Shown: piece after piece, positions 1,985-33,595 of the stretch
Position numbering within the stretch: the stretch's first letter is position 1
Layout: every line of letters starts with the position of its first letter
From: Candidatus Sericytochromatia bacterium
GTDB lineage: Bacteria > Cyanobacteriota > Sericytochromatia > S15B-MN24 > JAQBPE01
Assembly: GCA_035284745.1 (NCBI GenBank)
Contig: JAYKIL010000021.1
Span: 9,197 to 73,196 of the forward strand
DNA length: 64,000 nt
Reading direction: 5' to 3'
Position numbers and translations under genes: made by a program
The notes under the pieces: model-generated
Seen by the model: the letters and a program-made list of their open reading frames with translations, nothing else
Told to the model about the DNA's origin: nothing
Database searches by the model: none

Positions 1985-3391
1985 TTAGAAGAACCCGGTG
2001 GGGTTGACCGCCCGCCCTTGGATGCGAAGTTCGAAATGAACGTGAGGGCCAGTGGACCGCCCAGTGCTTCCCATTTTCGCGACCTGATCGCCCGCGTTCA
2101 CAGACTGACCCTCTGTAACCAGAACCCGCGAACAGTGAGCATAGCGAGTCACAACGCCACCCCCGTGGTCAATGTCCACGGCATACCCATAAGCCCCCAT
2201 CCACCCCGCCGACAAGACGGTACCCGCCTTTGCGGCCCGAATGGGGGTTCCAATGACGTTACAAATATCAACACCCGGATGGAAAGAATAGCCGCGGACC
2301 CCAAATGGAGAAGACATCTGACCATTTGCCGGCCAGGAAAGTCCCCCGACCCGACTCCCAAAGGCCCCGACCAAACTACGGGAAACATTCAGACGACCCG
2401 ACCATCCGGCGCCTCTGCGATACCCCCGGTGCCCGACAATGGCGGACTCGCGGGTCCTTATTTTCGAAGCGCCCGGAATAAAAATCAATTGGTCCCTGTT
2501 CAAACTGTTCCGCGAGAGATGGGGATTATAGGCCTTCAAATCATCCATCGAAACCCGGTATCGATCTGCCAATTCGCGCCAGGTCTCTCCCGAAGCGGCG
2601 CGATGATAGGCACCATCAACAGGAGTAATGACGAGCCTCTGTCCCACCTGAGGCCTTGCCCCCACAGAAAGAAAATTGGTGAGGCGAATGGTGCGGCTTT
2701 TTAAACCGAAGCGCGCGGCGATCGAGCCAAAATCGTCACCCGAACGGACGATGTAAACCACATTCGTCGCGCGTCTTCCGGCTTCCAAAGCCCCGACGTG
2801 ACCCGCAGAAAAAGCTTCAATGACCGGTAGCTTATCCTGGAGATTCTGACCTGCGATCAAAAGCCCCGCCGCCGGTTGAGAGGTCCGCTGGGATACCGGC
2901 AACTGAAAATACAAAACCCCCATCGCCAGGCCAATCGACGCCGCCGCCAAAAGGGACGCCAGTGCGCCTATCACCCGCTGTTGCTGCCCCACAGGGGAGG
3001 CACCTGGAACCGGGTAGCGAACCGCTTTGGGGAGTACCTTAACCTCCCGGAGATCGGTTGCGCTGCCAAAGAGCACAGGGCCCTTGGCGCGGCCGAGAGG
3101 CCAAAACCTCCCACCAAAATCGGTGGACAGAAGGTGACGCTGGGACGCGTCGGTGAGATCACGTAAGGAAGTCCGCGAAAGGCGAGGCGCTTGATACGCG
3201 TGGGCGCGAGGCCTCGGCGCCTTGATCACGTAGGCAGGGATTTCGAAGGCTTCACGGGCACCCAGTTTATTCGGCTGCACTTCGACCAAAATCTGTCCTC
3301 CGAGAACACCGTTCGTCCGGCAAAACAAGGCCCCAGCAAAGAGCCTCCAAGGTGCAGCCAGCAGCGTTCCGGGGCGGTGCCGGACCTGCAA
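1985..3391 (-). CDS. M23 family metallopeptidase with two LysM domains and an N-terminal membrane anchor (cell-wall endopeptidase)
   Basis: C-terminus GVDICNVIGTPIRAAKAGTV...HGGGVVTRYAHCSRVLV...GSTGRSTGPHVHFELRIQGRAVNP is the M23/LytM motif set. Two LysM-like segments (YIVRSGDDFGSIAARFGL; YHRAASGETWRELADRYRVSMDDLKAYNP). TM helix VIGALASLLAAASIGLAMGVLYF. The true start is probably internal (GTG/TTG) and is uncertain. Confidence 0.8.
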   Translation of the reverse strand: MQVRHRPGTLLAAPWRLFAGALFCRTNGVLGGQILVEVQPNKLGAREAFEIPAYVIKAPRPRAHAYQAPRLSRTSLRDLTDASQRHLLSTDFGGRFWPLGRAKGPVLFGSATDLREVKVLPKAVRYPVPGASPVGQQQRVIGALASLLAAASIGLAMGVLYFQLPVSQRTSQPAAGLLIAGQNLQDKLPVIEAFSAGHVGALEAGRRATNVVYIVRSGDDFGSIAARFGLKSRTIRLTNFLSVGARPQVGQRLVITPVDGAYHRAASGETWRELADRYRVSMDDLKAYNPHLSRNSLNRDQLIFIPGASKIRTRESAIVGHRGYRRGAGWSGRLNVSRSLVGAFGSRVGGLSWPANGQMSSPFGVRGYSFHPGVDICNVIGTPIRAAKAGTVLSAGWMGAYGYAVDIDHGGGVVTRYAHCSRVLVTEGQSVNAGDQVAKMGSTGRSTGPHVHFELRIQGRAVNPTGFF

Positions 3392-3451
3392 CCAGCAAAC
3401 AAGCCTTTAATCAATTTAATCTTAATTTAGTATTCCTGTCAACCCAATTTA

Positions 3452-4096
3452 TCACGCCTTCACAGCCCGCCAATCGGCCAGAAACCGCTCAATACCACTG
3501 TCCGTCAAAGGGTGCTTGAACATTTGCTGCAACACCTTAAACGGCATCGTTGCCACATGGGCACCCAGACGGGCCGCCTGCGTCACGTGGATCGGGTGGC
3601 GAACACTCGCCACCAAAACCTGGGTCCCAAAGCCATAGTTTTGATAGATCTCGAGGATCTCCTCGATCAGTAGCATTCCGTCCTGCCCGACATCATCGAG
3701 TCGCCCCACGAATGGACTGACATACGTCGCGCCAGCCCTGGCCGCCAGTAAGGCCTGATTCGCCGAAAAAACCAAGGTCACATTCGTTTTGATACCCTCT
3801 GCCGAGCAGGTGGCGACGGCCTGCATCCCCGCCTCCGTCATCGGGACCTTCACCACGACATTCGGAGCCCATTGAGCATATTCACGGGCTTCCCGCATCA
3901 TTGATTCATAATCCAAACCAATCACTTCAGCGCTCACGGGGCCATCGGTAATCCCACAAATTTCAAGGACAACCTGCTTAAAGTCACGTCCCTCTTTTGC
4001 GACCAGAGAGGGATTCGTCGTGACGCCATCCACTTGCCCCCAGGCAACAGCCTTACGAATTTCGTCGACGTTGGCAGTGTCTAAAAAAAACTTCAT
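3452..4096 (-). CDS. tal: Transaldolase / fructose-6-phosphate aldolase family protein (short TalC/Fsa type)
   Basis: [16 protein letters not shown]...VTTNPSL...KVP.T.AG; 214 aa, typical of short transaldolases. Confidence 0.85.
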
Positions 4097-4354
4097 TGTT
4101 TTCCCTCATCTGGGTGTCAGCCCATCCACTCACGCTGCGTGATGACCTACGCCGCAAGGCGCCCCAACGAATTCTCTCTCATGTCTGCCCCTCCGCGCAA
4201 TCACCCGAACGATCGCTGATTGGAAGCGAGAAGCGTGTGGCCTTGGTCACGACACCGTAATGAGGATGTACCTAACATAAATGGGTCCTGGTTTCCCAGG
4301 CACAGCAACTTCGAATTGACGGATCGCCGAGCCATTTTCTCGGGAAATCCATGA

Positions 4355-4786
4355 ATGAAAGGTGAAACAATGACAGCCAAGAAAAAAACCACATCTCGCC
4401 CGACCGAGAACGCCAAGAAGAAAACGAACCGTGCCGCCAAGTCGGCTGTGGCAATTGCCGATAGCCCCGCGACGGTGACAGTCACAATGGCCCCAGAGGC
4501 CCCGGCCGAAGCGACCCGTGCGACAGCGCCGGTGGAAGCCTGTGCCCAAGAAACATCCAACCCTCAAGTGTCTGAGAAGGACAAAGGAGAGGCGGCACAA
4601 AAACCAGTCATCACGATTGGTATGTTCCAACGCTGCCTCTCGGAAAAAGGCTTCTACGATGGTGCCTGGGACGGACACTACGGGCCGTACACCAAGCTTT
4701 GGGTGGCACGCTTCCAAGCCGCCCACAATCTCCCGGTAGACGGAGAACCCACAGCGGAAACGCTGCAGGCGCTTGGCTTACAATAA
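4355..4786 (+). CDS. Peptidoglycan-binding domain (PG_binding_1) protein with Lys-rich N-terminus
   Basis: C-terminal KGFYDGAWDGHYGPYTKLWVARFQAAHNLPVDGEPTAETLQAL matches the PG_binding_1 consensus (DG.fG..T..AV..FQ...GL..DG..G..T..AL). Confidence 0.55.
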   Translation: MKGETMTAKKKTTSRPTENAKKKTNRAAKSAVAIADSPATVTVTMAPEAPAEATRATAPVEACAQETSNPQVSEKDKGEAAQKPVITIGMFQRCLSEKGFYDGAWDGHYGPYTKLWVARFQAAHNLPVDGEPTAETLQALGLQ

Positions 4787-4871
4787 AACGATACAGACAG
4801 GGGTCAAAACGAGGCGGAGGATTCGGCTGAATCCTCCGCCTTTTCACATCCTCGAAAAATCAACCGGCGAA

Positions 4872-5579
4872 TCACGGAAATAATAACTCGTAGGTTTGTT
4901 CAAGCAAAACGTCACCGCGACGGAAGGTTGTCCCCGGCGGTGCCTGCTCCACCTCGGCCCGCGATGCGAAAGGCTGCACGGTTGTCACCCGAACGGTTCC
5001 TAACTCTTTAGGAGCCACGTTCGATGGATGACGAAAGACACGAAAAACCGAACCGGGGCGCACACCGTCTGCTTCTCCGAGGTCCAGCACGATCTGGTCT
5101 TCATCGATATCTTTCACACGACACCGCAACGGGTCCACGTGACGCACAAAACCGACCAACTGATCGGCAAGCGCCTCCGCAGCATTGCTCTCACCCAACA
5201 GGCCAAGGTCTCGGCTAAAGTCACCCGTACGGAAGTCGAACACGCGAACGGTCAAGCGCACCTGGTTACCCGTCGTTTCGTACTTACCCTCGACCAACAT
5301 ATCCACATTCGCGGCCGTTCTGGCTTTTCGGGCATTTTCCAAGGTCATTTCAGCATTCAGGGGAACACCCTTGAGTTTCGCTCGCGCAGCGGGACCATCG
5401 ACGACGCGAAAACGTCTGGTGGCAGTCAACTTGGTTCCCAAAGCAGTGGCCAGGGGCGCAGGTGCATTTTCAATGGCAACAGCCAAGCGAGGTTTCTCTG
5501 TCACTGTCTCAGCCAGGCCTGGTGTAACCCCTGAAATCCAGACAGCGAGAGAAAAAATGGCCACTCGATATAGGTTCAT
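4872..5579 (-). CDS. Hypothetical secreted protein (signal peptide MNLYRVAIFSLAVWISGVTPGLA)
   Basis: ORF with a signal-peptide-like N-terminus at the internal Met. No recognisable catalytic motifs. Confidence 0.45.
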   Translation of the reverse strand: MNLYRVAIFSLAVWISGVTPGLAETVTEKPRLAVAIENAPAPLATALGTKLTATRRFRVVDGPAARAKLKGVPLNAEMTLENARKARTAANVDMLVEGKYETTGNQVRLTVRVFDFRTGDFSRDLGLLGESNAAEALADQLVGFVRHVDPLRCRVKDIDEDQIVLDLGEADGVRPGSVFRVFRHPSNVAPKELGTVRVTTVQPFASRAEVEQAPPGTTFRRGDVLLEQTYELLFP

Positions 5580-5842
5580 CACGCGAAGCAACAAAATGTC
5601 CCGCCTCAATTTCAGCCCCAAAAACCTCATTTAGCCCCATCCAGATCGAAAACCAGGGTCAGGGCTATGTTTGTATGGTCGGCCCAAGCCCCGTTGCTCT
5701 GAAGAGAAATTGGCGAGAAGGATTGAATTATTGTCCCTGGGTTAATTTTTGGAGGAATGAAGTTAATCTTCGCAAGCCCGGCACTCGCCAACAGGATACA
5801 TCAGATGAGTCATCCCTATGGTGGTCGGAGGTCGTGCCCGAA

Positions 5843-7672
5843 ATGCTCCAACAGCGCTCCTTGGCAATTCCCCTCGCCATCTTCGCCCTCTCAGGATGTG
5901 GGACAAACTTCAAAAACACCCACCTGATCACGTCTGCGGCCGTTCCTGCCCGCCCCGCCGCCAAGGTGACTGCCGAAACTCGAGCCGTCAGTTCCAAAAA
6001 CGCCACCGTGACTCGGGTGGAAAGCCCCGCCGCAAAAGAAACCAAACTGCCTCCCGTCACGGATGAGGTCATCGTCAAATTCAGAAGCGCATCCCGCGAC
6101 CTTCCGGGAGCCACCCGCGTGCGTGATCTCGGTCTGAAAGGTGCCGCCATTTACAAGATGAATGCAGGCGCTTATTCGCTGCAATCAACGGACGAATGGG
6201 AAGAGGCCGAAGACATTGACTACATTGAGCCAAACTATCGTTATGAGGCTGTAAACACGCCCAATGATGCAAACTATGCCGCAAGCTGGGGCGTTGCCGC
6301 CATCAACGCCCCAAGCCTTTGGGCCCTCACCACCGGAGTGGGTGTCAATGTGGCCGTTCTGGATACGGGAGTTGATGCCCGCCATCCAGACCTTTCAGGG
6401 CGGGTTTTGCCGGGTATCGACCTGGTCAATAATGATAGTGACGCGACGGATGACCACGGACATGGCACCCACGTGGCCGGAACCATCGCGGCCATCGCCA
6501 ACAACGGCATCGATGTAGCAGGTATCGCGCCCGGCGCTTCCATTATCCCGATTAAAGTTCTCAACTCGCGTGGTCAGGGCTCAAACGCCGATATCGCCAG
6601 CGGCATCCTGGAAGCCGCCAACCGTGGCGCAAAAATAATCAACCTCAGCCTCGGAGGGACTGACAATTCGGAAACGATAAGACGGGCGATCGCCAACGTT
6701 CAGGAACGTGGCGTCGTGGTGATCGCGGCCGCTGGCAACAGTGGGGTTTCAACACCTTTCTTCCCTGCTGCCAACGAAGGGGTTATCGGGGTTGCTGCCG
6801 TTGACAGCAGGCGTGAAAAACCTCGTTTCAGCAACTTTGGGGATTACATCGATATCGCAGCGCCAGGCGTTGATATCGGCTCCACAAAATTGGGGGGCGG
6901 CGTGACAAAAATGAGCGGTACCAGTATGGCGAGCCCGCATGTAGCGGGCGCCTGTGCCCTAATTCTTTCACAGTTTCCAACCCTTAAAACGGGGCACTTA
7001 ACCCGACTGATGCAAAAGTCGGGCCATCCGACCAGCGGCTTCCCCGGCCAAGCGCCACGTGCCCTGAATGTGGAAGAGGCGTTTGTCCAAGTCCCTACCC
7101 TGGATATGCAAGCTCCGAGCACTGTTTTGGGGCTGACAGCCACACCTGGCGCCCCCGGAGAAGTCAATCTTGGATGGACCGCGGCGACAGACAACCAAAG
7201 CCGCGTCAGTTATCGCATTTTGCGCAACGGGCAAACCGTTGGCAGCACCAGGAACGTCACCTTTACGGATCGCGGGGTCAGCGGCCGCAGCACCTACCAG
7301 ATCATCGCAATGGATGAAGATGGGAACGAGGCTGCCCCCAGTGCGCCCGTGGAAGGAACGCCAGGCGTCGCATCCGACAAGATTATCGACCTGCGGATCA
7401 CCAAACGCTCGACACAAGAGGTGACGATTTCCTGGAAAACCACCGAACCGATGCGCTGCCTCGTGCAATGGGGCCCCAACGCATCCTTGGGCGAGGGAAC
7501 CACGTGGGCCACCACCCCAACCAAAGCGCACTCCGTCACTCTGAAAAAACTGAGCCGTTTCAAGACCTATCATTATCGGGTGGTCGCCGCTACCAATTCC
7601 AGCACATTGCACTACAGCAATACCCAACGTGTGCGCACCAAACTTTGGTTCCTTTTCAGCTTACCTGAATAG
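5843..7672 (+). CDS. Subtilisin-like serine protease (peptidase S8) lipoprotein with C-terminal fibronectin-III-like domains
   Basis: Asp/His/Ser triad motifs VAVLDTGVDARHPDL, HGHGTHVAGTIAA, GTSMASPHVAGACAL. Lipobox LAIFALSGC after ATG at 5843. C-terminal Fn3-like repeats (LGWTAATDNQSRVSYRI; TISWKTTEP...YHYRVVA). Confidence 0.85.
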   Translation: MLQQRSLAIPLAIFALSGCGTNFKNTHLITSAAVPARPAAKVTAETRAVSSKNATVTRVESPAAKETKLPPVTDEVIVKFRSASRDLPGATRVRDLGLKGAAIYKMNAGAYSLQSTDEWEEAEDIDYIEPNYRYEAVNTPNDANYAASWGVAAINAPSLWALTTGVGVNVAVLDTGVDARHPDLSGRVLPGIDLVNNDSDATDDHGHGTHVAGTIAAIANNGIDVAGIAPGASIIPIKVLNSRGQGSNADIASGILEAANRGAKIINLSLGGTDNSETIRRAIANVQERGVVVIAAAGNSGVSTPFFPAANEGVIGVAAVDSRREKPRFSNFGDYIDIAAPGVDIGSTKLGGGVTKMSGTSMASPHVAGACALILSQFPTLKTGHLTRLMQKSGHPTSGFPGQAPRALNVEEAFVQVPTLDMQAPSTVLGLTATPGAPGEVNLGWTAATDNQSRVSYRILRNGQTVGSTRNVTFTDRGVSGRSTYQIIAMDEDGNEAAPSAPVEGTPGVASDKIIDLRITKRSTQEVTISWKTTEPMRCLVQWGPNASLGEGTTWATTPTKAHSVTLKKLSRFKTYHYRVVAATNSSTLHYSNTQRVRTKLWFLFSLPE

Positions 7673-7705
7673 CCAATGGGAGAGGTTTTCCCTGGCTGCT
7701 TTGTC

Positions 7706-10700
7706 TCACGGTGATGGCAGCAAAATCCTAAATGTACTGCCCTCACCTTCTTGAGATTCCAGAGTCAGGCTCCCTCCTAACCTTTCAATAATTCGGCGAC
7801 ACACAGACAGGCCCAGTCCTTTTCCCTCGCCCACGCCTTTGGTTGTATAGAACGGATCGAAGACACGACGTTGGAGAGAGACCGGAATGCCACTTCCCGT
7901 GTCTGAGACAGCAATGACAATGCCATTCCATTCCCGCAGCAGATTCACCCGAACGCAGCGCAGACCAATCTCTCGCTCCCGCACCGCATAAGCAGCGTTC
8001 ATCAGGAGTTGAACAATCACTTGGCGAAGATCGCTCTCTGAGCCCAATGCGCCCGGCACCGGTCCACCCACCACATTCAAGTCGATATCGCGAAATGACG
8101 CCTGGAGTGAGACCAGATCGATGGCCTCACGGACCACCCGAGCCACATCAATTTCTTCTGACGGAGATTGTTTGACTTTGGAAAAACTCAACAGCGCTTC
8201 CACAATTTCCTTGCATCGTTGCGCGCCGTCTTCAATCAGTGCGACGCTTTCGAGCAGGCTCGGGTCAGTAAGTTCAAGGCGCAACATTTGCGCATTGACA
8301 AGAACGGCGCCAAGCGGATTGTTAATCTCGTGCGCGACGCCCGCGGCCAGAGTCCCCACTGTGGCCAGTTTCTCAGACTCCAGCAGTTGGTCTTGAATCT
8401 GAACAAGTTCGTGGAGGGTACGCTCTAGCTCTTCGGTCCGCTGACGCACCTTTTCTTCAAGGCTTTGGTTCAATTCCCGGATCGTATCGAACGCTTGGAC
8501 GTTTTGAAGCATCAAAGCGACTTGGGCGGCTATCGCCGTCAAAACATCTAAATCCCGCTGCGCAAATGTTCTGTTGGCGCTCGAAGAACTCACATACAGG
8601 GCTCCGAGGAGCGTCTCATCCAACAACAAAGGAACGCACATCACCGAACGTACATTCCGCAGCATCAGGCTCGCCGTCTGAAGCAGTTCTTGGTCTTGCC
8701 CCACATCCAAGATGGTCAGCGCTTTACGAGCCTGCAAAACTCGCGACAAAATTGTTCGACTGATCAAGCTGGGGTCAGGCCTCCCGCCCGCACAGTCTAA
8801 ACTCGCCCGACACGCAAAATCATCGCCAAAAAACACGAATCCTTGTTCGCCCTCGGTCACCTTCAACACCTGTTCCAGCGCAAGTTGAAGGAGGCCCCCC
8901 ATATCCATGGCACCCGCCAGGGCCTGATTAAGGCTGTTGAGAAAAGCGACCCTCGCATCTTTGCGCCGCGCATCCTCCTCGTTATGAAGGCAGCGCAAAA
9001 CCAGACCCGCAGCCGCCGTGACGGCACGCACGGTGTCTTTCAGCTGCCCTGTGAGTTCCGACCACGCGTGCCCAGATTCCACATAAACAACGCCCCAGGC
9101 CATTTCGTGCGCTCGGGCGGGCGGTGCGCACAGAGGAACAAGCAGCAACCCTTCCAAGCCCGCCCCCAAAAAAACCTCCTGCGACATCCAACTCGGAAAC
9201 TCCAGCTCACGATGGACCCACAAACTGGCTTTCTCCGTCGCCACTCGTTCAAGCGCGTGGGGGAAGGGCAACGGCGAATCCAGGGCCACGGTTCCACCCG
9301 GTTCAGCCCAGCCATCCACCAGGCTCAGCTTGCCCTCATCCGAACGCAAATAAACCAGAATGCGAGAGACAGGGATTTGTGCGCGCAACGTCCCTTGTAA
9401 CCATTTCAAAACCTCTGAAAAGCTGGGGGGCACCTCAAGAAACTCGAGAAGAGAGGGGCGCGAGGCCCACGAATTTTCTGCGCCCGCCTCGTGAAAAGAG
9501 GCCTGCATCGCGCCCCAGGCTGCGGCCCGCTCCGGCCAACCCAAAAATATCTGACGTTCGGTCGGTCCGAGTGGGTCGACCCAGACCGCAAAATGAGCAC
9601 GGGCTTGCTCCAACAATGCCAAGCGCTCTTCGTCGCTTTCGGAAAAGCCTGCGAGCTCCACCAAAACAAGGGCGCGATGATGAGGAGCCGGCAAAGATTC
9701 GGCCAAATTCAGCGCATACTCAAAATGTTGCTGGGGCTCCGATCGAGCCCCGGATAAACCCGAAATTTTTCCGCGAATGAGGGCAATATCGATATCAAGC
9801 GCCTCAGTGCCCGCCAAGCGGCTCCATTCGGCCGCCGCCACCAAGGCCTCTCGCGCCACCTCAACCTGGCCACGAGCGAGGTGCAAACGCGCCCATAACC
9901 AATGCCATCGAGCAGCCAGGCCCGGCGCGCTTTCCCAAGCGGCCTCAGCCCACAACACTTCAAGCAAAGCTCGGGCATCAAACAACGCGCCATCGCGCAG
10001 GTATGCTTCTGCCCTTCTCAATCCGATTCCCCGTGGGACCGCCTCGGCATCAAGCGACCCAAATGGCGCAGACTCGAACAGTTCTGCCAAGCGCCCTTGA
10101 AAGAGCAGAACGTCAGCCCAACTCACAAGCAAGCGCTCACCCCAGACAGCATCATCAATCTCTGCCGACTCACGCCAGGCGGCACGAATCGTGGGTATTG
10201 GATCCGCCCCCCCACCCCCCGCATAGGCCACCAGTTGAGACAACGCACGGCTCAACAACGTTTGTTCTGGCGGCGTCCACTCAACAAGAAGCTGCTGGGC
10301 CCGTTCCAGACTGCCGGTCTGCAAAACGGCCCACAGTTCCTCGAATTCCACGCGTTCCCTTTCAATAGAGTGACGAGCCGTCAAGGCCCTGAGCTCAGAG
10401 TAAGCCTCTGCAGCCACGCCATACCGTTCCCTAGAAATGGCCGAGGCGGCGATCGCTCCGAGGAGATCCCCGAGCAATTGCCACAGGCCCCAACGAGCTG
10501 CCGCTTCTCTAAATTTTGACCCTTCGAGCCACGCCACTTCGGGCGCCAATGTGCCATCCTCGAGGCGCCGCCACACCCCCCAGCCTTCGACCACCAAAGA
10601 GATGGCAGGGGTCCAATACGTGGAAGGCCATTGCGAAGTTCGCGGCAGCGCACGGGTCTCATCGGGGCTGGCATCAGACCATCGCGTTTTCTCAAGCGGT

Positions 10701-12694
10701 GCCAATTCTAAGCACAAAAGGTCACGCAAGGCAGGCGCAGAATTCAAGGATTCAAGAAAACCCGCGCGCGCAGCACCAAAATCTCTCTTTGAAAGAGCCC
10801 GTCGGCCATCGAACCAATGACACCATCCTTGGCCCTCTGATGTTTCCCCCAAGACCCGCTGGGCCAGCAGGAAGTGTTCAGAATTGGGTGCGTCGAAATT
10901 CGCAAGCGCAAGCAACACCCAGAAGGTATTTGAAAAACTTTGCTCCAAGAGCAGACCAGGCGACACCGGGGCGACCAGGCGGGCAAAAGCCTTCAGCCGC
11001 CCCAGTGAGTGTGCCTCCAGAGCGGTAAGAGACAATGCGACGGAAAAATCCGCATCCGCACCGGCTGCCAATGCAGCGAAAACACGCCGCGAGGCTGGAA
11101 CACTCGGAAGCGCGGCAATTCGTCGTTGCCAACGCATGCGATCCCCAAAAGTGGCCTGGTTTTCGATGCGAAATCCATCGCCTGAGGCGAAAAAGGTGAT
11201 CCCCCGACCACGACAAACGAGCCAAGCCGAGTCAATGGCCCGGGCCAGTGCTTGAAAAAATTCAAGCACTGGCATATCCATCAAGTCCATCAACGTTTCA
11301 AATGACGCCCACCCCCCCGCGAGTTGCAGGGCGAGCATCAATTCTCGCACCACTTCATCCGGCCAGCGGGGTTGATGATGGACACTTTGCCACAGTGACT
11401 GAACCGCCCGCACACGCGAAACATCACAAGACGTCAGGGAAAAATCTGTTGTCGCGGGCCTGAGGGATTTAACCAGGGCCTTCGGGACTGCTTCCTGCGC
11501 CAGACTCCCTTCCTCTGGGCGAAGTTCCGGACCCGCCGCCGCAATGCCTTCATCCGCTTCCGGGGCTCCCAGCAAACAGATGACATGCCGAAACGTTGAA
11601 CGACTTAATATTTCATCCAGCAGAAGTCGGTCTGAGGCCGCCAAAGTGGAGACATCCGGGAAAAACAGCACATCCAAATGTTCGGCAACGCCCTGCGCCA
11701 ACTCTTCCATACAGGCCTCTACATAGGCCCTTTGACCCAAGTCACTCAAATACACAGAGACCGGGTCAAAGACAGTCTCAGAAGGAACCCGAGAGGCTCC
11801 GTGCGGCGCGGGCCAGCCAGGAATGAGGTCCCGCAGTCCCTCCTCTGGTTGCCCCAAGACCGTCCGAAAGCGGACAGGAAGCGCCTGAGCAATCGCATGC
11901 GCGCAGGTGTCGGCCAGTGCCCGGCGCATCGCGATATCGGACGTGAGAAGCCAAACCGCCTGAGGCCGCAAGGCCTTATCAACATGCAGGAGGCAATCGC
12001 CGGCCACCTCAACGGTGCGCTCCCGTTCGTTTCTCGTCAACAGAAGTTCTGACGACATTCGCGGGGCCGTTTCAAACCCCAGAAGGGCAAGTGCCTCGCC
12101 TGGTTCCTGATGCCGCAGGCATTTTAACGCGTTTTCAAGGTGCAACGGACGCCCGGCGAGACGAGAGACGTCTTCTAGCTCCTCACAGAGAAACAACCAA
12201 TCTTGCCTTCGAAAATGCTCGTGCGGACCATCCTCCCCAATCACCTGAGGCTCGAAATCGGGCGCCAACAGACGCCACTGCCCCCGCGAATCATAAAGCA
12301 GAGAATCCAAGGTCGGCCGCAAGCCCACCACACCCACCTCGTGGGCTCGGTCTATCAACGTGACCAGCTCCCCAAAAAGCTGCACCGCCGCCTCAGGGGA
12401 TGCCTCGCCACCCCAAGCGCTCCCGCTCACAGGAGTGAGCCACGCCCGAACTTCCCCGGCGCCATCAGTGTCGACGTTCAAATCCAGAAAAAGCGTGCTG
12501 CGGAGGCTCGCGAGTCGCCATAACTGCCAGACAAAATAACGCTTATCACCCTTCAGGGAAGCGCCATCAAATTGGACACAACGGCGCACGGCTGCGCCGT
12601 CTGATACCAAAAATGACACGGCCATTCGGCCTCGCCACGCCCCGGGGAGGGAGGCGACATCCCCCGTCTGCAGCGACACCAAACTTTCTTCCAT
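7706..12694 (-). CDS. Giant multidomain sensor histidine kinase: N-terminal degenerate Ser/Thr-kinase-like domain, NTPase/TPR-like central region, GAF-like regions, C-terminal HisKA + HATPase_c
   Basis: C-terminus has H-box AHEINNPLGAV and ATPase G-boxes (DTGSGIP, GKGLGLSVCRRIIERLGG). N-terminus has a kinase-like catalytic loop and DFG remnant (VVGLRPTLDSLLYD ... LLAPDFEP). 1662 aa single ORF. Confidence 0.85.
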   Translation of the reverse strand: MEESLVSLQTGDVASLPGAWRGRMAVSFLVSDGAAVRRCVQFDGASLKGDKRYFVWQLWRLASLRSTLFLDLNVDTDGAGEVRAWLTPVSGSAWGGEASPEAAVQLFGELVTLIDRAHEVGVVGLRPTLDSLLYDSRGQWRLLAPDFEPQVIGEDGPHEHFRRQDWLFLCEELEDVSRLAGRPLHLENALKCLRHQEPGEALALLGFETAPRMSSELLLTRNERERTVEVAGDCLLHVDKALRPQAVWLLTSDIAMRRALADTCAHAIAQALPVRFRTVLGQPEEGLRDLIPGWPAPHGASRVPSETVFDPVSVYLSDLGQRAYVEACMEELAQGVAEHLDVLFFPDVSTLAASDRLLLDEILSRSTFRHVICLLGAPEADEGIAAAGPELRPEEGSLAQEAVPKALVKSLRPATTDFSLTSCDVSRVRAVQSLWQSVHHQPRWPDEVVRELMLALQLAGGWASFETLMDLMDMPVLEFFQALARAIDSAWLVCRGRGITFFASGDGFRIENQATFGDRMRWQRRIAALPSVPASRRVFAALAAGADADFSVALSLTALEAHSLGRLKAFARLVAPVSPGLLLEQSFSNTFWVLLALANFDAPNSEHFLLAQRVLGETSEGQGWCHWFDGRRALSKRDFGAARAGFLESLNSAPALRDLLCLELAPLEKTRWSDASPDETRALPRTSQWPSTYWTPAISLVVEGWGVWRRLEDGTLAPEVAWLEGSKFREAAARWGLWQLLGDLLGAIAASAISRERYGVAAEAYSELRALTARHSIERERVEFEELWAVLQTGSLERAQQLLVEWTPPEQTLLSRALSQLVAYAGGGGADPIPTIRAAWRESAEIDDAVWGERLLVSWADVLLFQGRLAELFESAPFGSLDAEAVPRGIGLRRAEAYLRDGALFDARALLEVLWAEAAWESAPGLAARWHWLWARLHLARGQVEVAREALVAAAEWSRLAGTEALDIDIALIRGKISGLSGARSEPQQHFEYALNLAESLPAPHHRALVLVELAGFSESDEERLALLEQARAHFAVWVDPLGPTERQIFLGWPERAAAWGAMQASFHEAGAENSWASRPSLLEFLEVPPSFSEVLKWLQGTLRAQIPVSRILVYLRSDEGKLSLVDGWAEPGGTVALDSPLPFPHALERVATEKASLWVHRELEFPSWMSQEVFLGAGLEGLLLVPLCAPPARAHEMAWGVVYVESGHAWSELTGQLKDTVRAVTAAAGLVLRCLHNEEDARRKDARVAFLNSLNQALAGAMDMGGLLQLALEQVLKVTEGEQGFVFFGDDFACRASLDCAGGRPDPSLISRTILSRVLQARKALTILDVGQDQELLQTASLMLRNVRSVMCVPLLLDETLLGALYVSSSSANRTFAQRDLDVLTAIAAQVALMLQNVQAFDTIRELNQSLEEKVRQRTEELERTLHELVQIQDQLLESEKLATVGTLAAGVAHEINNPLGAVLVNAQMLRLELTDPSLLESVALIEDGAQRCKEIVEALLSFSKVKQSPSEEIDVARVVREAIDLVSLQASFRDIDLNVVGGPVPGALGSESDLRQVIVQLLMNAAYAVREREIGLRCVRVNLLREWNGIVIAVSDTGSGIPVSLQRRVFDPFYTTKGVGEGKGLGLSVCRRIIERLGGSLTLESQEGEGSTFRILLPSP

Positions 12695-12851
12695 ACTCGT
12701 CGTGAGCCCTTGTCAAAACTTCGGATGAGGCCGTTCGGCCCCTTCCTCCGTACCCGCGCCAACTCTTGTGAAACCTAAAAACTTCCAACACACGCGTGGA
12801 ACTGGGGTAGAATCAAGCAAATTCCACCCCAAAAATCGCTTGGAGCCTGCT

Positions 12852-14180
12852 ATGTCTCTACTCAATCTTCCCCTCTACGCTGAACGTCGGCGGCGTTTTA
12901 TGGCCGCAATGGAAGGTGGTGGCGCGATTTTCTTGGCACCACCGGCTCGTGTCCGCTCAAGGGATACCGACCACGCATATCGACCAGACAGCGACTTTTT
13001 TTATCTCACCGGATTCCGCGAGCAAGGGGCCGCCTTGTTGTTGGTTCCAGACCACCCGGAACACCAGGTGATCGCGTTCGTCCAGCCTAAAGATGCACAC
13101 ATGGAAACCTGGCACGGGCGCAGGCTTGGAGTCGACGCAGCGCCTGTTCACCTCGGGGTCGACGCGGCCTACCCCATCGATGAGATCGAACGGATCCTGC
13201 CCAAATATTTGGTGGGCGTGCCAAAGCTCTATTGCCAGCTCGGGGTCTGGAAAGAACACGACGAACTGCTGTTGAGGCTTTTGCCTCGTCTGGGAAATCG
13301 TCACACGTCACCGCCCGACGCACTGATCGCCACGGGCCGCCTCATCCACGAGATGCGCCTGCGAAAGGATGCCACTGAGATCTCGTTAATGCGCCAAGCC
13401 GCAGCCATCACGGCGACGGCCTATCAAGACGCCTTGCGATTTATCCGCCCGGGACACTTCGAATATGAAGTTCAGGCAGCCCTTGAGAACGCTTATCGTC
13501 GACTCGGCGGAGAAGGTCCTGCCTACCACCCCATCGTAGCGGGGGGAGAGAACGCAACGATCCTACACTACAACGAGAACGATGCACCGCTCCAAGCGGG
13601 CGACTTGTTGCTCATTGATTCGGGGGCAGAATACCAGTATTACGCCTGCGACGTCACAAGAACCTACCCAATCGGCGGAACGTTTTCCGAGGCCCAGCGT
13701 CGCGTTTACGACCTGGTTCTGCGGGCAGAAAAGGAAGCCATTGAAAAAGTCCGCGTCGGAGAGCACGTCAAGGGTTACCATGAACACGCCGTTCGCGTGC
13801 TCACCGCCGGTATGGTTGAACTCGGCTGGCTCCACGGCTCCGTGGATCAACTCATTGAAACGGAAGCATACAAACGCTTTTATATGCACGGGACCGGTCA
13901 TTACTTAGGCCTCGATACACACGATGTGGGACGCTACAAGATCAACGACCAATGGCGTGCCATAGAACCTGGAATGGTGGTAACCGTCGAGCCTGGCCTC
14001 TATGTTCCTCACGGCACACCCGGCGTCGATCCCATTTTTTGGGGCATTGGCATTCGGATTGAGGACGATATCCTGGTCGGAGACGATGGCGCGCCCGACA
14101 ACCTAACGTCGGCCATTCCCAAGGAGGCTGTCGCCATTGAGACCTTGCTGCGCCAGAGTGCTGGCTCGGCGGTTGTTTAA
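12852..14180 (+). CDS. pepP: Xaa-Pro aminopeptidase (M24B family)
   Basis: AMP_N-like N-terminus (YRPDSDFFYLTGF) and M24 metal-ligand motifs (DSGAEYQYYACDVTRT; HGTGHYLGLDTHD; GMVVTVEPGLY). Start at ATG 12852; the upstream track extension lacks RBS context. Confidence 0.85.
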   Translation: MSLLNLPLYAERRRRFMAAMEGGGAIFLAPPARVRSRDTDHAYRPDSDFFYLTGFREQGAALLLVPDHPEHQVIAFVQPKDAHMETWHGRRLGVDAAPVHLGVDAAYPIDEIERILPKYLVGVPKLYCQLGVWKEHDELLLRLLPRLGNRHTSPPDALIATGRLIHEMRLRKDATEISLMRQAAAITATAYQDALRFIRPGHFEYEVQAALENAYRRLGGEGPAYHPIVAGGENATILHYNENDAPLQAGDLLLIDSGAEYQYYACDVTRTYPIGGTFSEAQRRVYDLVLRAEKEAIEKVRVGEHVKGYHEHAVRVLTAGMVELGWLHGSVDQLIETEAYKRFYMHGTGHYLGLDTHDVGRYKINDQWRAIEPGMVVTVEPGLYVPHGTPGVDPIFWGIGIRIEDDILVGDDGAPDNLTSAIPKEAVAIETLLRQSAGSAVV

Positions 14181-14310
14181 TACAAAAATCTTTAGGTTTC
14201 AGGCAACGCACGCACGAAGAGCCCCAGCACCTTTCAATCACGGGTAAGTGCTGTCCATTTCAGGTCTTTCTCCGTGTTTCAGTCATTTTTTCGTGGTATT
14301 CCATACAGCG

Positions 14311-15360
14311 ATGACGAGGAACACCAGATTGGGCAGCATCCGGACTGAGCGTCCACCCTCCGAGGCCATCACACGGAGGCAGTTTGTAACTCGCACGGGG
14401 GCATACGCTGCGGGGTTCGCCGTTCCTGGATGGATCCCCGGCCACAGCAACGAAGCAAAGGAATACAACGGCCCCCGGCTTCTCCGCTTTGCGCACCTCA
14501 CCGACCTTCACTTTACGAGCCGCGTGCAAAGCAGATACCCAACAAGCCACCGCCATATTGTGCGGGCTGTGGAGGCCCTCAACTCTGAATGGCTCGATTT
14601 TGTGCTTTTCACCGGCGATATGTTTCATTTTCCCGAAGACTTTGAAACAGAATTACCGGCACTGCGCGATGCGCTGAAAGGACTTAACTGTCCCTACTAT
14701 TGTTTATTCGGTAACCACGATGCAGAAGGTACCGGCCTGCGCCAACGCAAACTGAGGATTGCGACCCTTCTCGGCGATCGCGGACTCGCGGAGGGAAACA
14801 GCTATTATTCTTTCACGCCGGTGCCAGGACTGCGAATCATTGCGCTCGACACAACCGATACGGGTGAAGACCATTACCACGGCTGGGGGGGCACGATCAG
14901 CCAACGGCAGTTCGTTTGGCTTCGGGAAATTTTGAGGGCCGCCCGGGATGAAACCGTATTTCTGGCACTGCACCATCCTCCGATTACCCCGTACCCATTT
15001 CTCGAAAAGTTACGCCTTGAGCCCAAAACAGCCCACCGCCTTGGCCAAATCATCGCTGAACATACACAGGTACAGTTGGCTTTTGCCGGCCACTATCATT
15101 TCGGCGCGTGTGATCAATTCGCGGGCGCTCACCTCATTATCGGACCCTCTTTGGTTGAGCATCCCCATCCTTATCGACTTTTCGAACTTTTCCAAACCCC
15201 CGAAGGCGCCCTACGGACACATTTCAGTTGGCACACCCTCCCCTTGCACGAGCACGAAGACGAGCGTTGCGTATGGAGCCTTGCAGGAATTCGCGGGCAC
15301 AGCCTGCAGCAAATTAGCTACGCCCGAACGGGAAACCTCTTGATTAGAGGCCCCGGTTAA
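14311..15360 (+). CDS. Tat-secreted calcineurin-like metallophosphoesterase
   Basis: Twin-arginine signal TRRQFVTRTGAYAAGFAV. Metallophos motifs HLTDLHF, GDMFHF, GNHD, LHHPP. Confidence 0.7.
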   Translation: MTRNTRLGSIRTERPPSEAITRRQFVTRTGAYAAGFAVPGWIPGHSNEAKEYNGPRLLRFAHLTDLHFTSRVQSRYPTSHRHIVRAVEALNSEWLDFVLFTGDMFHFPEDFETELPALRDALKGLNCPYYCLFGNHDAEGTGLRQRKLRIATLLGDRGLAEGNSYYSFTPVPGLRIIALDTTDTGEDHYHGWGGTISQRQFVWLREILRAARDETVFLALHHPPITPYPFLEKLRLEPKTAHRLGQIIAEHTQVQLAFAGHYHFGACDQFAGAHLIIGPSLVEHPHPYRLFELFQTPEGALRTHFSWHTLPLHEHEDERCVWSLAGIRGHSLQQISYARTGNLLIRGPG

Positions 15361-15462
15361 AATGGAACGCAGGCCGTGTAAGATACGTACATCAGAGATG
15401 GTATTCCTCCTCCGCACTTTTCGCGCCCAGAAGAAAGTGCACTGACACGACCGAGGCTTCGC

Positions 15463-16581
15463 GTGTCCCGCCTGACCCAATCGCTCATCATCCCACCGCC
15501 TCCCCCAGACCCATACCGTTCCCTTTTCCTAAAGGGAATTGCCGTCACGGCAGGGGCGTTAATTACGCTGGCATTGGCGTGGAGCCTGGTGGCCTTGATT
15601 GAGGTGTGGGTCATTCTGATTGGGGCCCTCCTTGTTGCAGCGGCCCTCGGCCCACCTGTTGAATCCTTGATGCGCGTCAAGTTGCCCCGTGTCGCCGCCG
15701 TTGGGGTGACCTTTCTCGCAGTCTCCGCGACAGCGGTCCTGTTGTTGATGGTCCTCATTCCCCAGGTCATGACCCAGGGGCAAGACCTTGCCGCCAGTCT
15801 TCCCAGCTATGTTGACCGTTTGCAAGAATTTCTGACGAAACTGCACGCGCGGCACAAGTTTGTTCCCGAGGGCAGTTACCTCATTGGTTACGTGGCCGAA
15901 ACCGGCTCCCAAGTTCTCGCCAACGCTTTCACCATGACCGGTAAGTTTGTTTGGCTGGTCATCGTTTTCCTTTCGATTCTTTTTTTGGCTTTTTTTATGC
16001 TGCTGGATGGCCGCAGGTTGCAAGAAACCCTTGTTCGCCTCATTCCCTCCCGACAAAAAACACAATTCCCGGAACTTCTGCAACAGGTTGAACTGCGCGT
16101 GGGGCAATACATGGCGGGGCTAGGAATCATCTGCGCACTGGCAGGGCTCTTGACCTGGGGTGTTCTGGCCTTGCTCGGGCTCCCCTATGCCCTTTTGGTG
16201 GGCGCCATCACCGCATTATTGCAAGCCATTCCCTTTGTTGGACCCTTAATTGGCGGCGCACTTGCCGCTCTGATCGGCCTTTCGCAATCGGGAACCCTGG
16301 CCCTGTGGTCCATCTTTTGGTACGCAGCGATTCAGCAACTCATCGGCCAGGTGCTGTTCCCGTGGATTATGGGACGCAGTATCGGGATGCACCCCGCCTG
16401 GGTCGCCGTGGTGCTGTTGGCAGGAGGCACCCTCTACGGTCTCACCGGAGCGTTCTTGGCAATTCCCGTTGCCATCGCCGTCTCAATCATTTTGGAGTGT
16501 TACTACCTCCCTTGGGCCGACGCGAAGTCTACGGAACGAACACCCCCCGCCCCGACGCCCTCTCCCGCGCCCGAGAGCTAA
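15463..16581 (+). CDS. AI-2E family transporter (PerM/YhhT-like permease)
   Basis: Polytopic membrane protein with AI-2E signature regions (AITALLQAIPFVGPLIGG...FLAIPVA). Confidence 0.8.
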   Translation: MSRLTQSLIIPPPPPDPYRSLFLKGIAVTAGALITLALAWSLVALIEVWVILIGALLVAAALGPPVESLMRVKLPRVAAVGVTFLAVSATAVLLLMVLIPQVMTQGQDLAASLPSYVDRLQEFLTKLHARHKFVPEGSYLIGYVAETGSQVLANAFTMTGKFVWLVIVFLSILFLAFFMLLDGRRLQETLVRLIPSRQKTQFPELLQQVELRVGQYMAGLGIICALAGLLTWGVLALLGLPYALLVGAITALLQAIPFVGPLIGGALAALIGLSQSGTLALWSIFWYAAIQQLIGQVLFPWIMGRSIGMHPAWVAVVLLAGGTLYGLTGAFLAIPVAIAVSIILECYYLPWADAKSTERTPPAPTPSPAPES

Positions 16582-16793
16582 AAAAACCCCAAGATTTTCC
16601 GCAACCAAGGAAAGCGTCGCACCGCGCAGCGCACATCCCGACAGAACCCCGTGACTGCCTGCATTTTGGTGCGTTGCGCACATGCGTGCCCCCCCCGAAA
16701 AGACATAATAAACAGGTACAAGGGCGAAAAAGCCCTCAATGGGAGGCAGGGACCTCAAGCCCTGGACTCAAGCAGCATTCAAGCAGGACATCT

Positions 16794-18722
16794 ATGACTC
16801 CTCAGTCGTTTCGGACCAGCACTCTCCGCTCGAGCCTCGCTCTGGCGTTGTTGCTCGTCCCGCAGTCTGTCCAAGCGGGGACGGTTCAATCAGATTCCCG
16901 CCAGGTATTGGGGGCTCCTCAATTCCACACGCAGGCCGACCAGCTACGAATCCCGGTAAGGGGTCGTGGGATGCCCAAATTTTTGCTGCAAAAGCTGGCT
17001 TCTCGGCAATATGTGGTCGACTTTTCAGACTGCGAAGTACCGGGGCCTCGCCACAGTGTGGCACAACCAACGGAGAGCCATCTGGCGGGTTGGTCGATGG
17101 CGAAGACGCCACACCAGCCCAATACCCGCCTCAGACTCACGATGCGGGACGACACGCCTCCTCAGGCTCATTTCGACCCTACGCGCCACGAAGTCATCTT
17201 GTCTTTCGCGTCGACACCGTCCCTGCATCAAACGGCCCCAGCGATCACGCTGATGGCAAAGAAGAACGAACAAGTACGCCCAGAGGCAGAGGTCACGCAA
17301 AGTGCCCGTGCGTCTCACCGCATCGTCAATAGGCCCGTGTCTGAGGTGCCCTTGGTTCTCATTCAAGCCAGCGATTCCCCGCCTCGTTTGAAACAGCCCA
17401 CCGCTCAAGAGAGAAACGTAATCCGTCAAAAAACCCCCGCGGTTTCGCGCGCTGCAAAGATAAAAACCTCTTATCACGACATTCTGTCAACTGCCCACGC
17501 GCGCGTGGGAACACCTCACTTTGATAGGACGAGTCAGCAGTTGGTCATTCCGGTCATTCAGGGCAAAGTCAGCCAAAACGCAATCAAGACATACCGTCTC
17601 AACAAGCGCTGGTCGTACCTGGACATTGAAGGGACATTGCCGGCTTTCAGTGGCGTTCGCTGGCAGGAACGCCCCGACTTCAAATTCCAGCGTTGGGTAT
17701 CCGCGAAGCGACCGCAGCGCGCAGCGACACGGGTTTCCTTCGCATCGGGTGTCGACGTGCGACTGGCCGTCCGCACGACGCCCAAAGCAGTGTTTGTCCG
17801 CGTCATTCCTACGGCGGTTCATCTGGGAACCTCTCCTAAAAAGTCGATTCAGGCCGCGGCCCCCAAGCCGTTAAAAATCCTGCAACCGAAAGCACCACGC
17901 CAACAAGTCACCGAGACGAAGGCGACTCATTTTGACACGGTCATCACACGTCCTTACTACGACACGGAGCGGTTTGGTTTGGTTTTCCCCTACGAAGGCC
18001 GTTTACCGCTCTTTCGCTATGCCACCAAGTCCGACCAGAAGGTCGTCCTCGAGCTGAAAGCCTCGCCGCGTCATCCAAGCCACCTGCAACCCACGGCCGT
18101 GGAGAACGCGGAATGGGGCAGTTGGAAGCTCATCAAAAACAGCCAAAGCCCGTTCTTGCGCTTGGAATTCAATTTCAAGCATCCCTCGGAACTCTCCATT
18201 GCCGCCGACCCCACGCGCCACCACCTGGTCCTGATTCCACATCCGCGCACGAAGCGCCACATTGCCTCCCATCGCGGAACCCAAGGGTGTTATCTCTCAC
18301 CCGTCGCACTCGACCAAAGGGAAGAAAACCTCTTCATCCCCTACACTGGCAGCGTCCCACAATACTCCATCGAGCGGGTGACCCCCACCTATGTGAACTT
18401 AATCTTTTCCGCCGCCAATCTCCGCGAGGCAGGCGTGCAACTCCACACCACCGCCCTCGGGTCGCCCCTAAAATACGCGCTACTCTCGCAACCCGCCCAC
18501 AGCACGGTGCGCTTGGCGGTTTCGCTGACCGTCCCCGCGGAAGTTAAAGTGTTCCAAGACGCCTCACACTCCCGGCTGGTGGTCGCCTTGAACCGTCACG
18601 CCGAACCGGCAGGCGAGGGAAACGAAGGCACCTTGAAACGGCCCGCTCCCTGGCCGCACACGGACAACACCCAACAGGCGAATCCCCTGATGGACACGAA
18701 CAGCCTCTCTCGCCGTCCCTAG
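16794..18722 (+). CDS. Secreted protein built from about four tandem AMIN-like repeat domains
   Basis: Signal peptide LALALLLVPQSVQA after ATG 16794. Four ~100-aa repeats each ending in ...V.L..(R/H) beta-rich segments, resembling AMIN domains. The track ORF start at 16305 overlaps the upstream transporter and is rejected. Confidence 0.45.
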   Translation: MTPQSFRTSTLRSSLALALLLVPQSVQAGTVQSDSRQVLGAPQFHTQADQLRIPVRGRGMPKFLLQKLASRQYVVDFSDCEVPGPRHSVAQPTESHLAGWSMAKTPHQPNTRLRLTMRDDTPPQAHFDPTRHEVILSFASTPSLHQTAPAITLMAKKNEQVRPEAEVTQSARASHRIVNRPVSEVPLVLIQASDSPPRLKQPTAQERNVIRQKTPAVSRAAKIKTSYHDILSTAHARVGTPHFDRTSQQLVIPVIQGKVSQNAIKTYRLNKRWSYLDIEGTLPAFSGVRWQERPDFKFQRWVSAKRPQRAATRVSFASGVDVRLAVRTTPKAVFVRVIPTAVHLGTSPKKSIQAAAPKPLKILQPKAPRQQVTETKATHFDTVITRPYYDTERFGLVFPYEGRLPLFRYATKSDQKVVLELKASPRHPSHLQPTAVENAEWGSWKLIKNSQSPFLRLEFNFKHPSELSIAADPTRHHLVLIPHPRTKRHIASHRGTQGCYLSPVALDQREENLFIPYTGSVPQYSIERVTPTYVNLIFSAANLREAGVQLHTTALGSPLKYALLSQPAHSTVRLAVSLTVPAEVKVFQDASHSRLVVALNRHAEPAGEGNEGTLKRPAPWPHTDNTQQANPLMDTNSLSRRP

Positions 18723-21016: not shown

Positions 21017-21108
21017 TCGATTAGAGCCCAAATGCACGAAACAGACCTCCAGGCCATCCACAGATGGCGGAAGCCCAAGTTTACCATAGCAACCGAGCGA
21101 AAGGCCCC

Positions 21109-33590: not shown

Positions 33591-33595
33591 GCCGA

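Follow-up and report, generated by a model that had tools for sequence, protein, structure and literature searches.

A soluble sensor histidine kinase of Sericytochromatia with a putative pseudokinase domain and a putative degenerate STAND-like module in its N-terminal half

We analysed a stretch of 64,000 nucleotides (the window) from a genome of a Candidatus Sericytochromatia bacterium, and in it a gene on the minus strand, 7706..12694, that encodes a predicted cytoplasmic sensor histidine kinase of 1662 amino acids. In the reading that we favour, and to which we give a probability of about 60%, the front half of this sensor histidine kinase goes back to a Ser/Thr kinase and a STAND (signal transduction ATPase with numerous domains) ATPase, both now without catalytic motifs. 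Its input module of ~1085 residues would then probably be laid out as a kinase-like domain, an AAA_16/STAND nucleoside triphosphatase (NTPase), a winged helix and tetratricopeptide repeats (TPR), as in HstK-type proteins or PknK. A preliminary description of this gene, made by a model from the letters of the sequence, had proposed a hybrid sensor in which a pseudokinase, an NTPase/TPR region and GAF domains precede a histidine kinase. That interpretation was partly supported by our analysis: the C-terminal histidine kinase, the TPR region and the missing response regulator were recovered, whereas the evidence for the kinase and NTPase parts was mixed.

The open reading frame (ORF) comprises 1662 codons, begins with ATG and, according to the ORF list and its translation, runs without interruption; this agrees with the preliminary description, which did not mention the minus strand and whose quoted strings (HEINNPLG, VVGLRPTLDSLL and APDFEP) were all located in the protein. 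A database protein from a Candidatus Sericytochromatia metagenome-assembled genome (MAG) matches the window protein at 100% (P0001) and is entitled 'HAMP domain-containing sensor histidine kinase' at NCBI. The HAMP label was rejected, because the Pfam family PF00672 gave no match at E ≤ 1. A transmembrane sensor was rejected as well, since no transmembrane segment was apparent in a Kyte-Doolittle scan, in which the maxima of the 19-residue windows (≤ 1.61) fall within the GAF cores; the earlier claim that the protein has no transmembrane helices thus holds. As the source is a metagenome-assembled genome, one might suspect that separate genes have been joined into the long ORF by misassembly or a frameshift error. 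However, colinear full-length ORFs of 1432-1770 residues are found at the same locus in three other independent assemblies, and a fourth copy (L003) is partial and ends at a contig edge, so that such an artefact is hardly credible. The ORF is a genuine gene, neither a chance product nor a frameshift fusion, because the same full-length architecture and gene neighbourhood recur in independently assembled genomes, and because the proportion of nonsynonymous differences (pN) in its N-terminal part is far smaller than that of synonymous differences (pS). A scan of positions 7500-13000 for promoters and terminators gave nothing beyond the expectation from shuffled sequence.

The C-terminal part of the protein is a complete histidine kinase core. 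The dimerisation and histidine phosphotransfer (DHp) domain, residues 1447-1508 (8171..8356, minus strand, as are all features of the gene given below), matches HisKA (PF00512) with E 2.5e-12 and 47.1 bits against a gathering score of 26.9, and the phospho-acceptor His1455 (codon 8330-8332) lies within HEINNPLG, residues 1455-1462. It is followed by HATPase_c (PF02518) at residues 1552-1661 (7712..8041), with E 1.6e-22 and 80.5 bits against a gathering score of 26.4. All the boxes of this domain are intact: the N box at residues 1563-1571, the G1 box DTGSGI at 1598-1603, the F box FDPFYTTK at 1612-1619 and the G2 box GLGLSV at 1626-1631. The protein therefore carries what defines a two-component histidine kinase, namely a HisKA domain with its H-box histidine and a GHKL ATPase domain with the four boxes just listed. 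In NCBIfam, the core partially matched kinases of the EspC, AtoS and ZraS type, all under the curated cut-off.

Two GAF stretches precede the core and were found by Pfam in the full window protein and likewise in its orthologues. The one nearer to the core, GAF-B (residues 1263-1397, 8504..8908), is canonical, with a Pfam GAF match at E 4e-13 and further matches to GAF_2 and GAF_3; inspection of GAF-B by eye revealed no Cys-His motif of the kind seen in bilin-binding, photosensory GAF domains. The other, GAF-A (residues 1086-1250, 8945..9439), is a divergent first GAF-like domain, recognised by a weak Pfam GAF match at about residues 1100-1215 (E 0.0019) when a 300-residue piece was searched. 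Between the Pfam matches of GAF-B and HisKA lies a linker, residues 1398-1446 (8357..8503), which is predicted to be helical and would correspond to a signalling helix. Judging from the Pfam matches, the intact boxes and the hydropathy, the window protein is probably a soluble, active sensor kinase, and the GAF-HisKA-HATPase_c arrangement of a large sensor kinase without transmembrane segments, as first proposed, was confirmed.

In contrast to the core, the region formed by residues 1 to ~1085 is nearly orphan. A word-indexed search of 5.8e9 proteins with residues 1-1100, like a word-indexed search with a profile, returned the protein itself and P0002, a metagenome protein of 1770 residues from JGI, and nothing else, and an exhaustive phmmer search of 1.84e9 representatives added just P0003 (1432 residues) and a 155-residue fragment. 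Scanning one genome per GTDB species gave three loci, in two Sericytochromatia MAGs and in 'Cyanobacteria bacterium RYN_339'; two scans of metagenome contigs found no family member. The family thus comprises five proteins, namely the window protein, P0002 (locus L004), the protein of L002 (1724 residues), that of L003 (partial, at the contig end) and P0003 (locus L001), and is apparently confined to Sericytochromatia and basal-cyanobacterial genomes. All five loci share a block of genes for an MMPL protein, an AI-2E transporter, a metallophosphoesterase, an M24 Xaa-Pro peptidase and the histidine kinase; an S8 subtilase gene lies on the other side of the kinase gene in four of them and would be past the contig end in L003. 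Because of this shared block we regard the family members as orthologues.

The first 215 residues (12050..12694) form a domain, here called the N-domain, that is probably a degenerate protein-kinase-like (pseudokinase) domain, as indicated by profile-profile alignment and by its position. Three motifs in it are invariant in the family, QLWRL (57-61), AH..V.GLR (117-126) and R..APD..P (141-149); VVGLRPTLDSLL spans residues 122-133 and APDFEP residues 144-149. We compared the N-domains of four family members with four kinase domains (PknB, PrkC, CDK2 and PKA) using hhalign. In global mode the score was 20.9, whereas column shuffles gave 1.5 ± 1.1 with a maximum of 5.0 (n=100), and 32 natural decoys, taken from syntenic neighbours and from other regions of the same family, ranged from -0.1 to 8.4. 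In local mode the score was 25.0, against 12.0 ± 2.1 with a maximum of 18.4 for the shuffles (n=200) and 9.4 to 18.0 for the same decoys. In the global alignment, co-linearity extends from the Gly-loop through the alphaH-alphaI region, and AH..V.GLR falls on.H..IIHRD of the kinases.

A second line of evidence comes from structure prediction. AlphaFold2 models of residues 1-220 and 1-600 both had a mean predicted local distance difference test score (pLDDT) of 41, that is, low confidence; the first was built from a two-sequence alignment and the second from only two or three sequences. A Foldseek search with the model of residues 1-220 gave nothing at E ≤ 1e-3, and about three-quarters of the top 50 entries for this low-confidence model were kinases or pseudokinases, including Rv3910 and YukC/EssB. 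The third line is position, as the N-domain stands where the Ser/Thr kinase stands in the HstK/cbSTKIII dual kinases. Each of these three lines is weak and they are independent; jointly they make a kinase-derived fold quite likely.

Several observations weigh against a kinase origin. Pfam Pkinase (PF00069) matched neither the window protein nor the N-domains of three orthologues at E ≤ 10, kinases were absent from the results of a PDB profile search with the N-domain, and a small home-made kinase hidden Markov model (HMM) run with --max gave zero matches to it. The probability that HH-suite itself assigned to the alignment was 4.5% in local and 12.5% in global mode (global E 5.5e-4), and the kinase alignment comprised four sequences, of which PknB alone was checked (tblastn, 80% identical to Nocardia PknB). 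Against the favoured reading as a whole, P0003 (L001:7296-11594, MAG JAYKHR010000048) begins at the NTPase-like module and has no ~215-residue N-domain; upstream of its start there are three in-frame codons and then a stop. The N-domain is thus a separable module that was lost in one lineage, and some of the protein's function, at least, does not depend on it. The pseudokinase of the preliminary description was accordingly not recovered by the Pfam and PDB profile scans on which that description had itself proposed to judge it, whereas the global hhalign score stands above the decoys.

It may be, instead, that residues 1-215 form a domain particular to this lineage that has no relation to protein kinases, in which case the remainder of the protein (degenerate STAND, TPR, GAF and histidine kinase) would be read as before. 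The hhalign score would then be an artefact of a generic alpha/beta pattern, and the kinases in the fold search would reflect a tendency of AlphaFold2 to default to a common fold. The negative kinase scans are what one would expect under this explanation, the scores above all shuffles and decoys and the co-linear alignment are not, and we consider it unlikely.

If the N-domain does have a kinase fold, it would be catalytically dead, since all the catalytic residues are replaced; to this extent, and on this condition, the earlier view of a dead kinase stands. In the hhalign register the Gly-rich loop corresponds to W20-R21-G22-R23-M24-A25, the beta3 Lys to R37 (Q in one orthologue), the alphaC Glu to Q57, HRD to G124-L125-R126, which is invariant in the family, and the Lys and Asn of the catalytic loop to T128 and S131. 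The kinase landmarks retained in this alignment are the alphaE His118, an APE-like A144-P145-D146 and the alphaF Asp165. The earlier assignment of AH..V.GLR to the HRD position agrees with hhalign, but that of APDF to DFG does not: hhalign aligns APD with APE and deletes the segment of beta7-beta8, DFG and the activation loop. In the alternative register P145-D146-F147 would be DFG, which would suit the spacing from HRD to DFG as well (20 residues, compared to 18 in PknB), and from the sequences the two registers cannot be distinguished.

The region that follows the N-domain appears to be degenerate in a similar way. We assign residues 216-442 (11369..12049) to a degenerate AAA_16/STAND-like NTPase module on the basis of sub-threshold matches in orthologues. 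AAA_16 (PF13191) was matched in two of five orthologues (E 5.6e-5 and 1.7e-3); in L003 the match runs over residues 239-396 and profile positions 2-167 of 167 with 19.3 bits, which is below the gathering score of 32.6. The family alignment also contains the opening 'L.G.E.EL..LG..L' that is typical of AAA_16. Walker A is defined as GxxxxGK[ST] and Walker B as hhhhD[DE]. None of the five members has the GK[ST] of Walker A, the aligned position reading TSDIAMRR, GTEGAFQE, GDPGSLQW (in two of them) or PTDVLHQL, and the acidic pair is absent from the Walker B strand in the five-member alignment. Against the NTPase assignment, residues 216-442 of the window protein itself have neither a Pfam match nor a Walker A motif, and comparing the NTPase and winged-helix region with E. 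coli MalT (a sequence validated against 8bob) by hhalign gave 13.7, compared to 13.3 ± 2.1 for the null. The NTPase proposed earlier therefore finds sub-threshold support in the orthologues and is unseen in the window protein; that this module, too, is likely to be dead, with both Walker motifs lost, had been overlooked.

The next segment, residues 443-560 (11015..11368), was assigned to a winged-helix domain with additional helices from AlphaFold2, Foldseek and conserved columns. It is the best conserved portion of the N-terminal region, with the motifs VRE...LMDMP...F..L..A...WL and RWQRRLAA, and the sole confident part of the model of residues 1-600 (pLDDT 70-87). Foldseek matched it weakly to regulators with winged helix-turn-helix domains, and more weakly still to the STAND proteins Avs3 and PH0952, and one orthologue gave a weak HTH_IclR match. 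Residues 561-1085 (9440..11014) form a helical repeat region that is TPR-like at least in its C-terminal half (about residues 800-1010). The family profile matched a designed TPR protein (2e-5) and Pins/LGN (1.8e-4) in the PDB, its match to the TPR of the STAND protein PH0952 was not significant (E 1.2), and the L002 protein matched TPR_12 (E 3e-6) and TPR_MalT (0.0018). The window protein itself matched TPR_19 only, with E 3.7; a Pfam search of its residues 1-1100 in 300-residue pieces at E ≤ 10 yielded nothing useful, and when the PDB was searched by phmmer and by profile with residues 1-1100, the N-domain profile and the NTPase profile, only TPR matches and noise came up. The helical, TPR-like middle of the protein suggested at the outset is thus borne out by the matches of the family profile and of L002. 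Of the features by which STAND proteins are recognised, the family has a winged helix and C-terminal TPR, and has neither an AAA_16 match above threshold nor the Walker motifs. We read the middle region as a probable degenerate STAND module (NTPase, winged helix and TPR) without a nucleotide switch, the NTPase part of which relies on sub-threshold matches.

The losses described above also bear on whether one or both of the N-domain and the NTPase-like module could be active through non-canonical residues, which would make the protein a true dual kinase like HstK. Kinases of the WNK and CASK type work with non-canonical residues, and some supposed pseudokinases subsequently proved active; moreover, no family member differs at D146, R126, H118 or D165. 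In our protein, however, the Gly-rich loop, the beta3 Lys, the alphaC Glu, the HRD Asp and the catalytic Asn are lost together, position 37 varies (R or Q), and the Lys and Ser of the P-loop are absent in five of five members, with replacements that differ between members. An active enzyme is, for these reasons, very improbable.

We then compared the conservation of the individual parts. The identity between the window protein and its orthologues was 27-28% in the N-domain, 21-23% in the NTPase-like module, 31-35% in the winged helix, 21-31% in the TPR region and 22-25% in GAF-A, 59-65% in GAF-B, 63-65% in the signalling helix with HisKA and 38-46% in HATPase_c. Neighbouring proteins are 50-93% identical between loci, compared to 21-35% for the N-terminus of the kinase. 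For the two most similar members, L004 and L003, pN in the N-terminal region was 0.18-0.26 and pS 0.62-0.72; the ratio dN/dS (nonsynonymous to synonymous substitution rate) was 0.21 in the N-domain, 0.12 in the NTPase-like module and 0.16 in the winged helix, values that are rough because dS is saturated, which tempers the argument from selection. Although it evolves fast, the N-terminal region is still subject to purifying selection.

These figures are relevant to the suggestion that residues 1 to ~1085 are a decaying remnant without a role and that only GAF-B and the histidine kinase core are functional. Identities as low as 21-35% in the N-terminal regions, next to 59-65% in GAF-B and HisKA and 50-93% in neighbouring proteins, would fit decay, as would the disappearance of all the catalytic motifs and the loss of the N-domain that has already occurred in one orthologue. 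A decaying region would not, however, be expected to remain open over more than 1000 codons in every complete orthologue, to have a pN well under pS (dN/dS 0.12-0.21 for L004 and L003), or to keep about 40-55 invariant columns across three to five members, LMDMP and RW.RR.AA among them. We consider decay improbable, and return to the reading of a retained input module of kinase and STAND descent.

On that reading, the dead kinase/STAND/TPR region would neither phosphorylate substrates nor cycle nucleotides; without Walker A and Walker B, which no member has, the ADP/ATP switch that defines STAND signalling could not operate. The N-terminal ~1085 residues would serve as a nucleotide-independent scaffold for protein interaction or oligomerisation and as a sensor of a partner or ligand. 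The conformation of this scaffold, together with any small ligand on the GAF domains, would be passed through the signalling helix after GAF-B to the DHp domain, where the input would set the level of autophosphorylation at His1455, and the phosphoryl group would then pass to an orphan response regulator whose gene lies at another place in the genome. A broader proposal is that the family is one of double pseudoenzymes, in which a kinase-fold domain and a STAND NTPase were both turned into nucleotide-independent scaffolds gating a histidine kinase, possibly as a sister or precursor of the HstK dual kinases; we offer this tentatively and think it rather doubtful.

In agreement with the earlier statement that no response regulator is adjacent, no receiver domain was found with a five-sequence receiver HMM run on the six-frame ORFs of the 64-kb window and of four orthologous loci, nor in Pfam scans of 30 ORFs of the window. 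No Ser/Thr kinase is encoded near the histidine kinase gene either.

The closest known architecture is that of the HstK/cbSTKIII dual kinases, in which a kinase domain is followed by at least one GAF domain and a C-terminal His kinase (PMC2176072). The window protein resembles them in being large and soluble, in its domain at the N-terminal kinase position, in its GAF domains and C-terminal HisKA/HATPase_c, and in belonging broadly to the cyanobacterial lineage; at least one GAF followed by a C-terminal His kinase is likewise present. Examples of the HstK type are HstK (Alr2258) and Pkn40/41 (Alr0709/Alr0710) of Anabaena, and many proteins of this type have AAA_16 between the kinase and the GAF domain. 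Unlike in HstK, the domain at the kinase position has no catalytic residues and is unseen by Pfam Pkinase, and the NTPase has no P-loop. The HstK family is defined by a recognisable and competent Ser/Thr kinase domain, which the window protein does not have; its likeness to this family is one of layout. The cbSTKIII kinases are known mainly from filamentous N2-fixing cyanobacteria, whereas our family occurs in non-photosynthetic Sericytochromatia-like MAGs. Neither Pkinase (PF00069) nor AAA_16 (PF13191) was found in any of the 120 listed relatives of residues 831-1662, in a search limited by its word index, so that descent from HstK-type proteins is not demonstrated.

In its middle part the protein resembles STAND NTPases such as E. 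coli MalT, M. tuberculosis PknK and Pyrococcus PH0952, with an NTPase-like alpha/beta module followed by a winged helix and TPR/MalT-like repeats. It differs from them in that the family lacks Walker A and B and has no detectable profile similarity to MalT, and in that its output is a histidine kinase and not a DNA-binding or death-type effector. The low-confidence model of the N-domain gave weak fold matches (3uqc, 6z0f, 4ano and 4ann) to bacterial pseudokinases, namely MviN/Rv3910 of M. tuberculosis and EssB/YukC of type VII secretion. These domains have a compact kinase fold without catalytic residues and are thought to act through protein binding; the N-domain has no sequence similarity to them, and they sit on membrane proteins and not on a STAND-GAF-histidine kinase chain. 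The histidine kinases of fungal group X are eukaryotic hybrid kinases that also contain a receiver. Candida albicans CHK1, which belongs to this group, has an S_TKc protein-kinase domain and a GAF domain in addition to its histidine kinase (PMC9069115). As far as the described domains go, the window protein is like CHK1 in joining a domain at the kinase position and GAF to a histidine kinase, and unlike it in being bacterial and having no receiver domain.

The kinase gene is transcribed divergently from the M24, metallophosphoesterase and AI-2E genes and lies tail-to-tail with the gene of the S8 protease. A conserved block, window positions 1985-21846, surrounds it in L001, L002, L003 and L004, the outer genes being present only where the fetched loci reach. 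Read along the plus strand, the order is M23/LysM peptidase, transaldolase, a 252-residue ORF, S8 subtilase with fn3 and the histidine kinase, and then M24 Xaa-Pro aminopeptidase, metallophosphoesterase, AI-2E transporter, MMPL and SLT transglycosylase. As this synteny may merely reflect relatedness, we draw no functional link to the neighbours. L002 (11832-14318, minus strand, MAG JAKFEW010000160) has an extra segment of ~2.6 kb between the kinase and the S8 protease, which contains a long ORF of 828 residues, or of 658 residues in an overlapping frame, and is absent from the window, L001 and L004. The 252-residue ORF (4872-5630, minus strand) had no Pfam match at E ≤ 1e-3 and is 73% conserved in L001. 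An ORF of 805 residues (16305-18722, plus strand), also without a Pfam match, partly overlaps the AI-2E transporter gene, at the end of the latter; matches in related loci are limited to the first ~75 residues of this ORF, and it may be spurious or have its start called too far upstream.

The remaining genes of the window are housekeeping ones, such as those for FolD, transaldolase, Era, CTP synthase, UvrA, PhoH, 7TMR-HD, MetK and DnaB, and neither tRNA genes nor Rfam families were found in the window. Four further ORFs had no Pfam match at E ≤ 1e-4: 44378-47359 (plus strand, 993 residues), 22783-24699 (minus strand, 638 residues), 30505-31746 (minus strand, 413 residues) and 43586-44332 (plus strand, 248 residues). 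At 30505-35086 on the minus strand, a SNF2-family helicase (615 residues) is flanked on the same strand by a classic AAA ATPase (496 residues) and by the 413-residue ORF just mentioned, and the three may form a functional cluster. The plus strand has a negative GC skew throughout, which sums to -3.44 over 64 kb and is weaker past ~46 kb, and its AT skew is mostly positive.

The window protein is an unusual, apparently lineage-restricted form of the known cyanobacterial 'dual kinase' design and not a new type of system. Descriptions of bacterial pseudokinases, and of STAND proteins that have no P-loop, are rare, and the combination of a double pseudoenzyme with an active histidine kinase would be unusual; the support for both dead folds is weak to moderate. 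With five known members, all in uncultured genomes, the practical importance is modest. If our reading is true, both dead domains are carried on one active-looking histidine kinase and retained under purifying selection, and the family would be a natural test case of how dead enzyme domains regulate two-component signalling and of a STAND/TPR platform that signals without an ADP/ATP switch. It would also place an HstK-like layout of kinase-position domain, GAF and histidine kinase in a non-photosynthetic sister lineage of the cyanobacteria, which would bear on the time at which this architecture originated.

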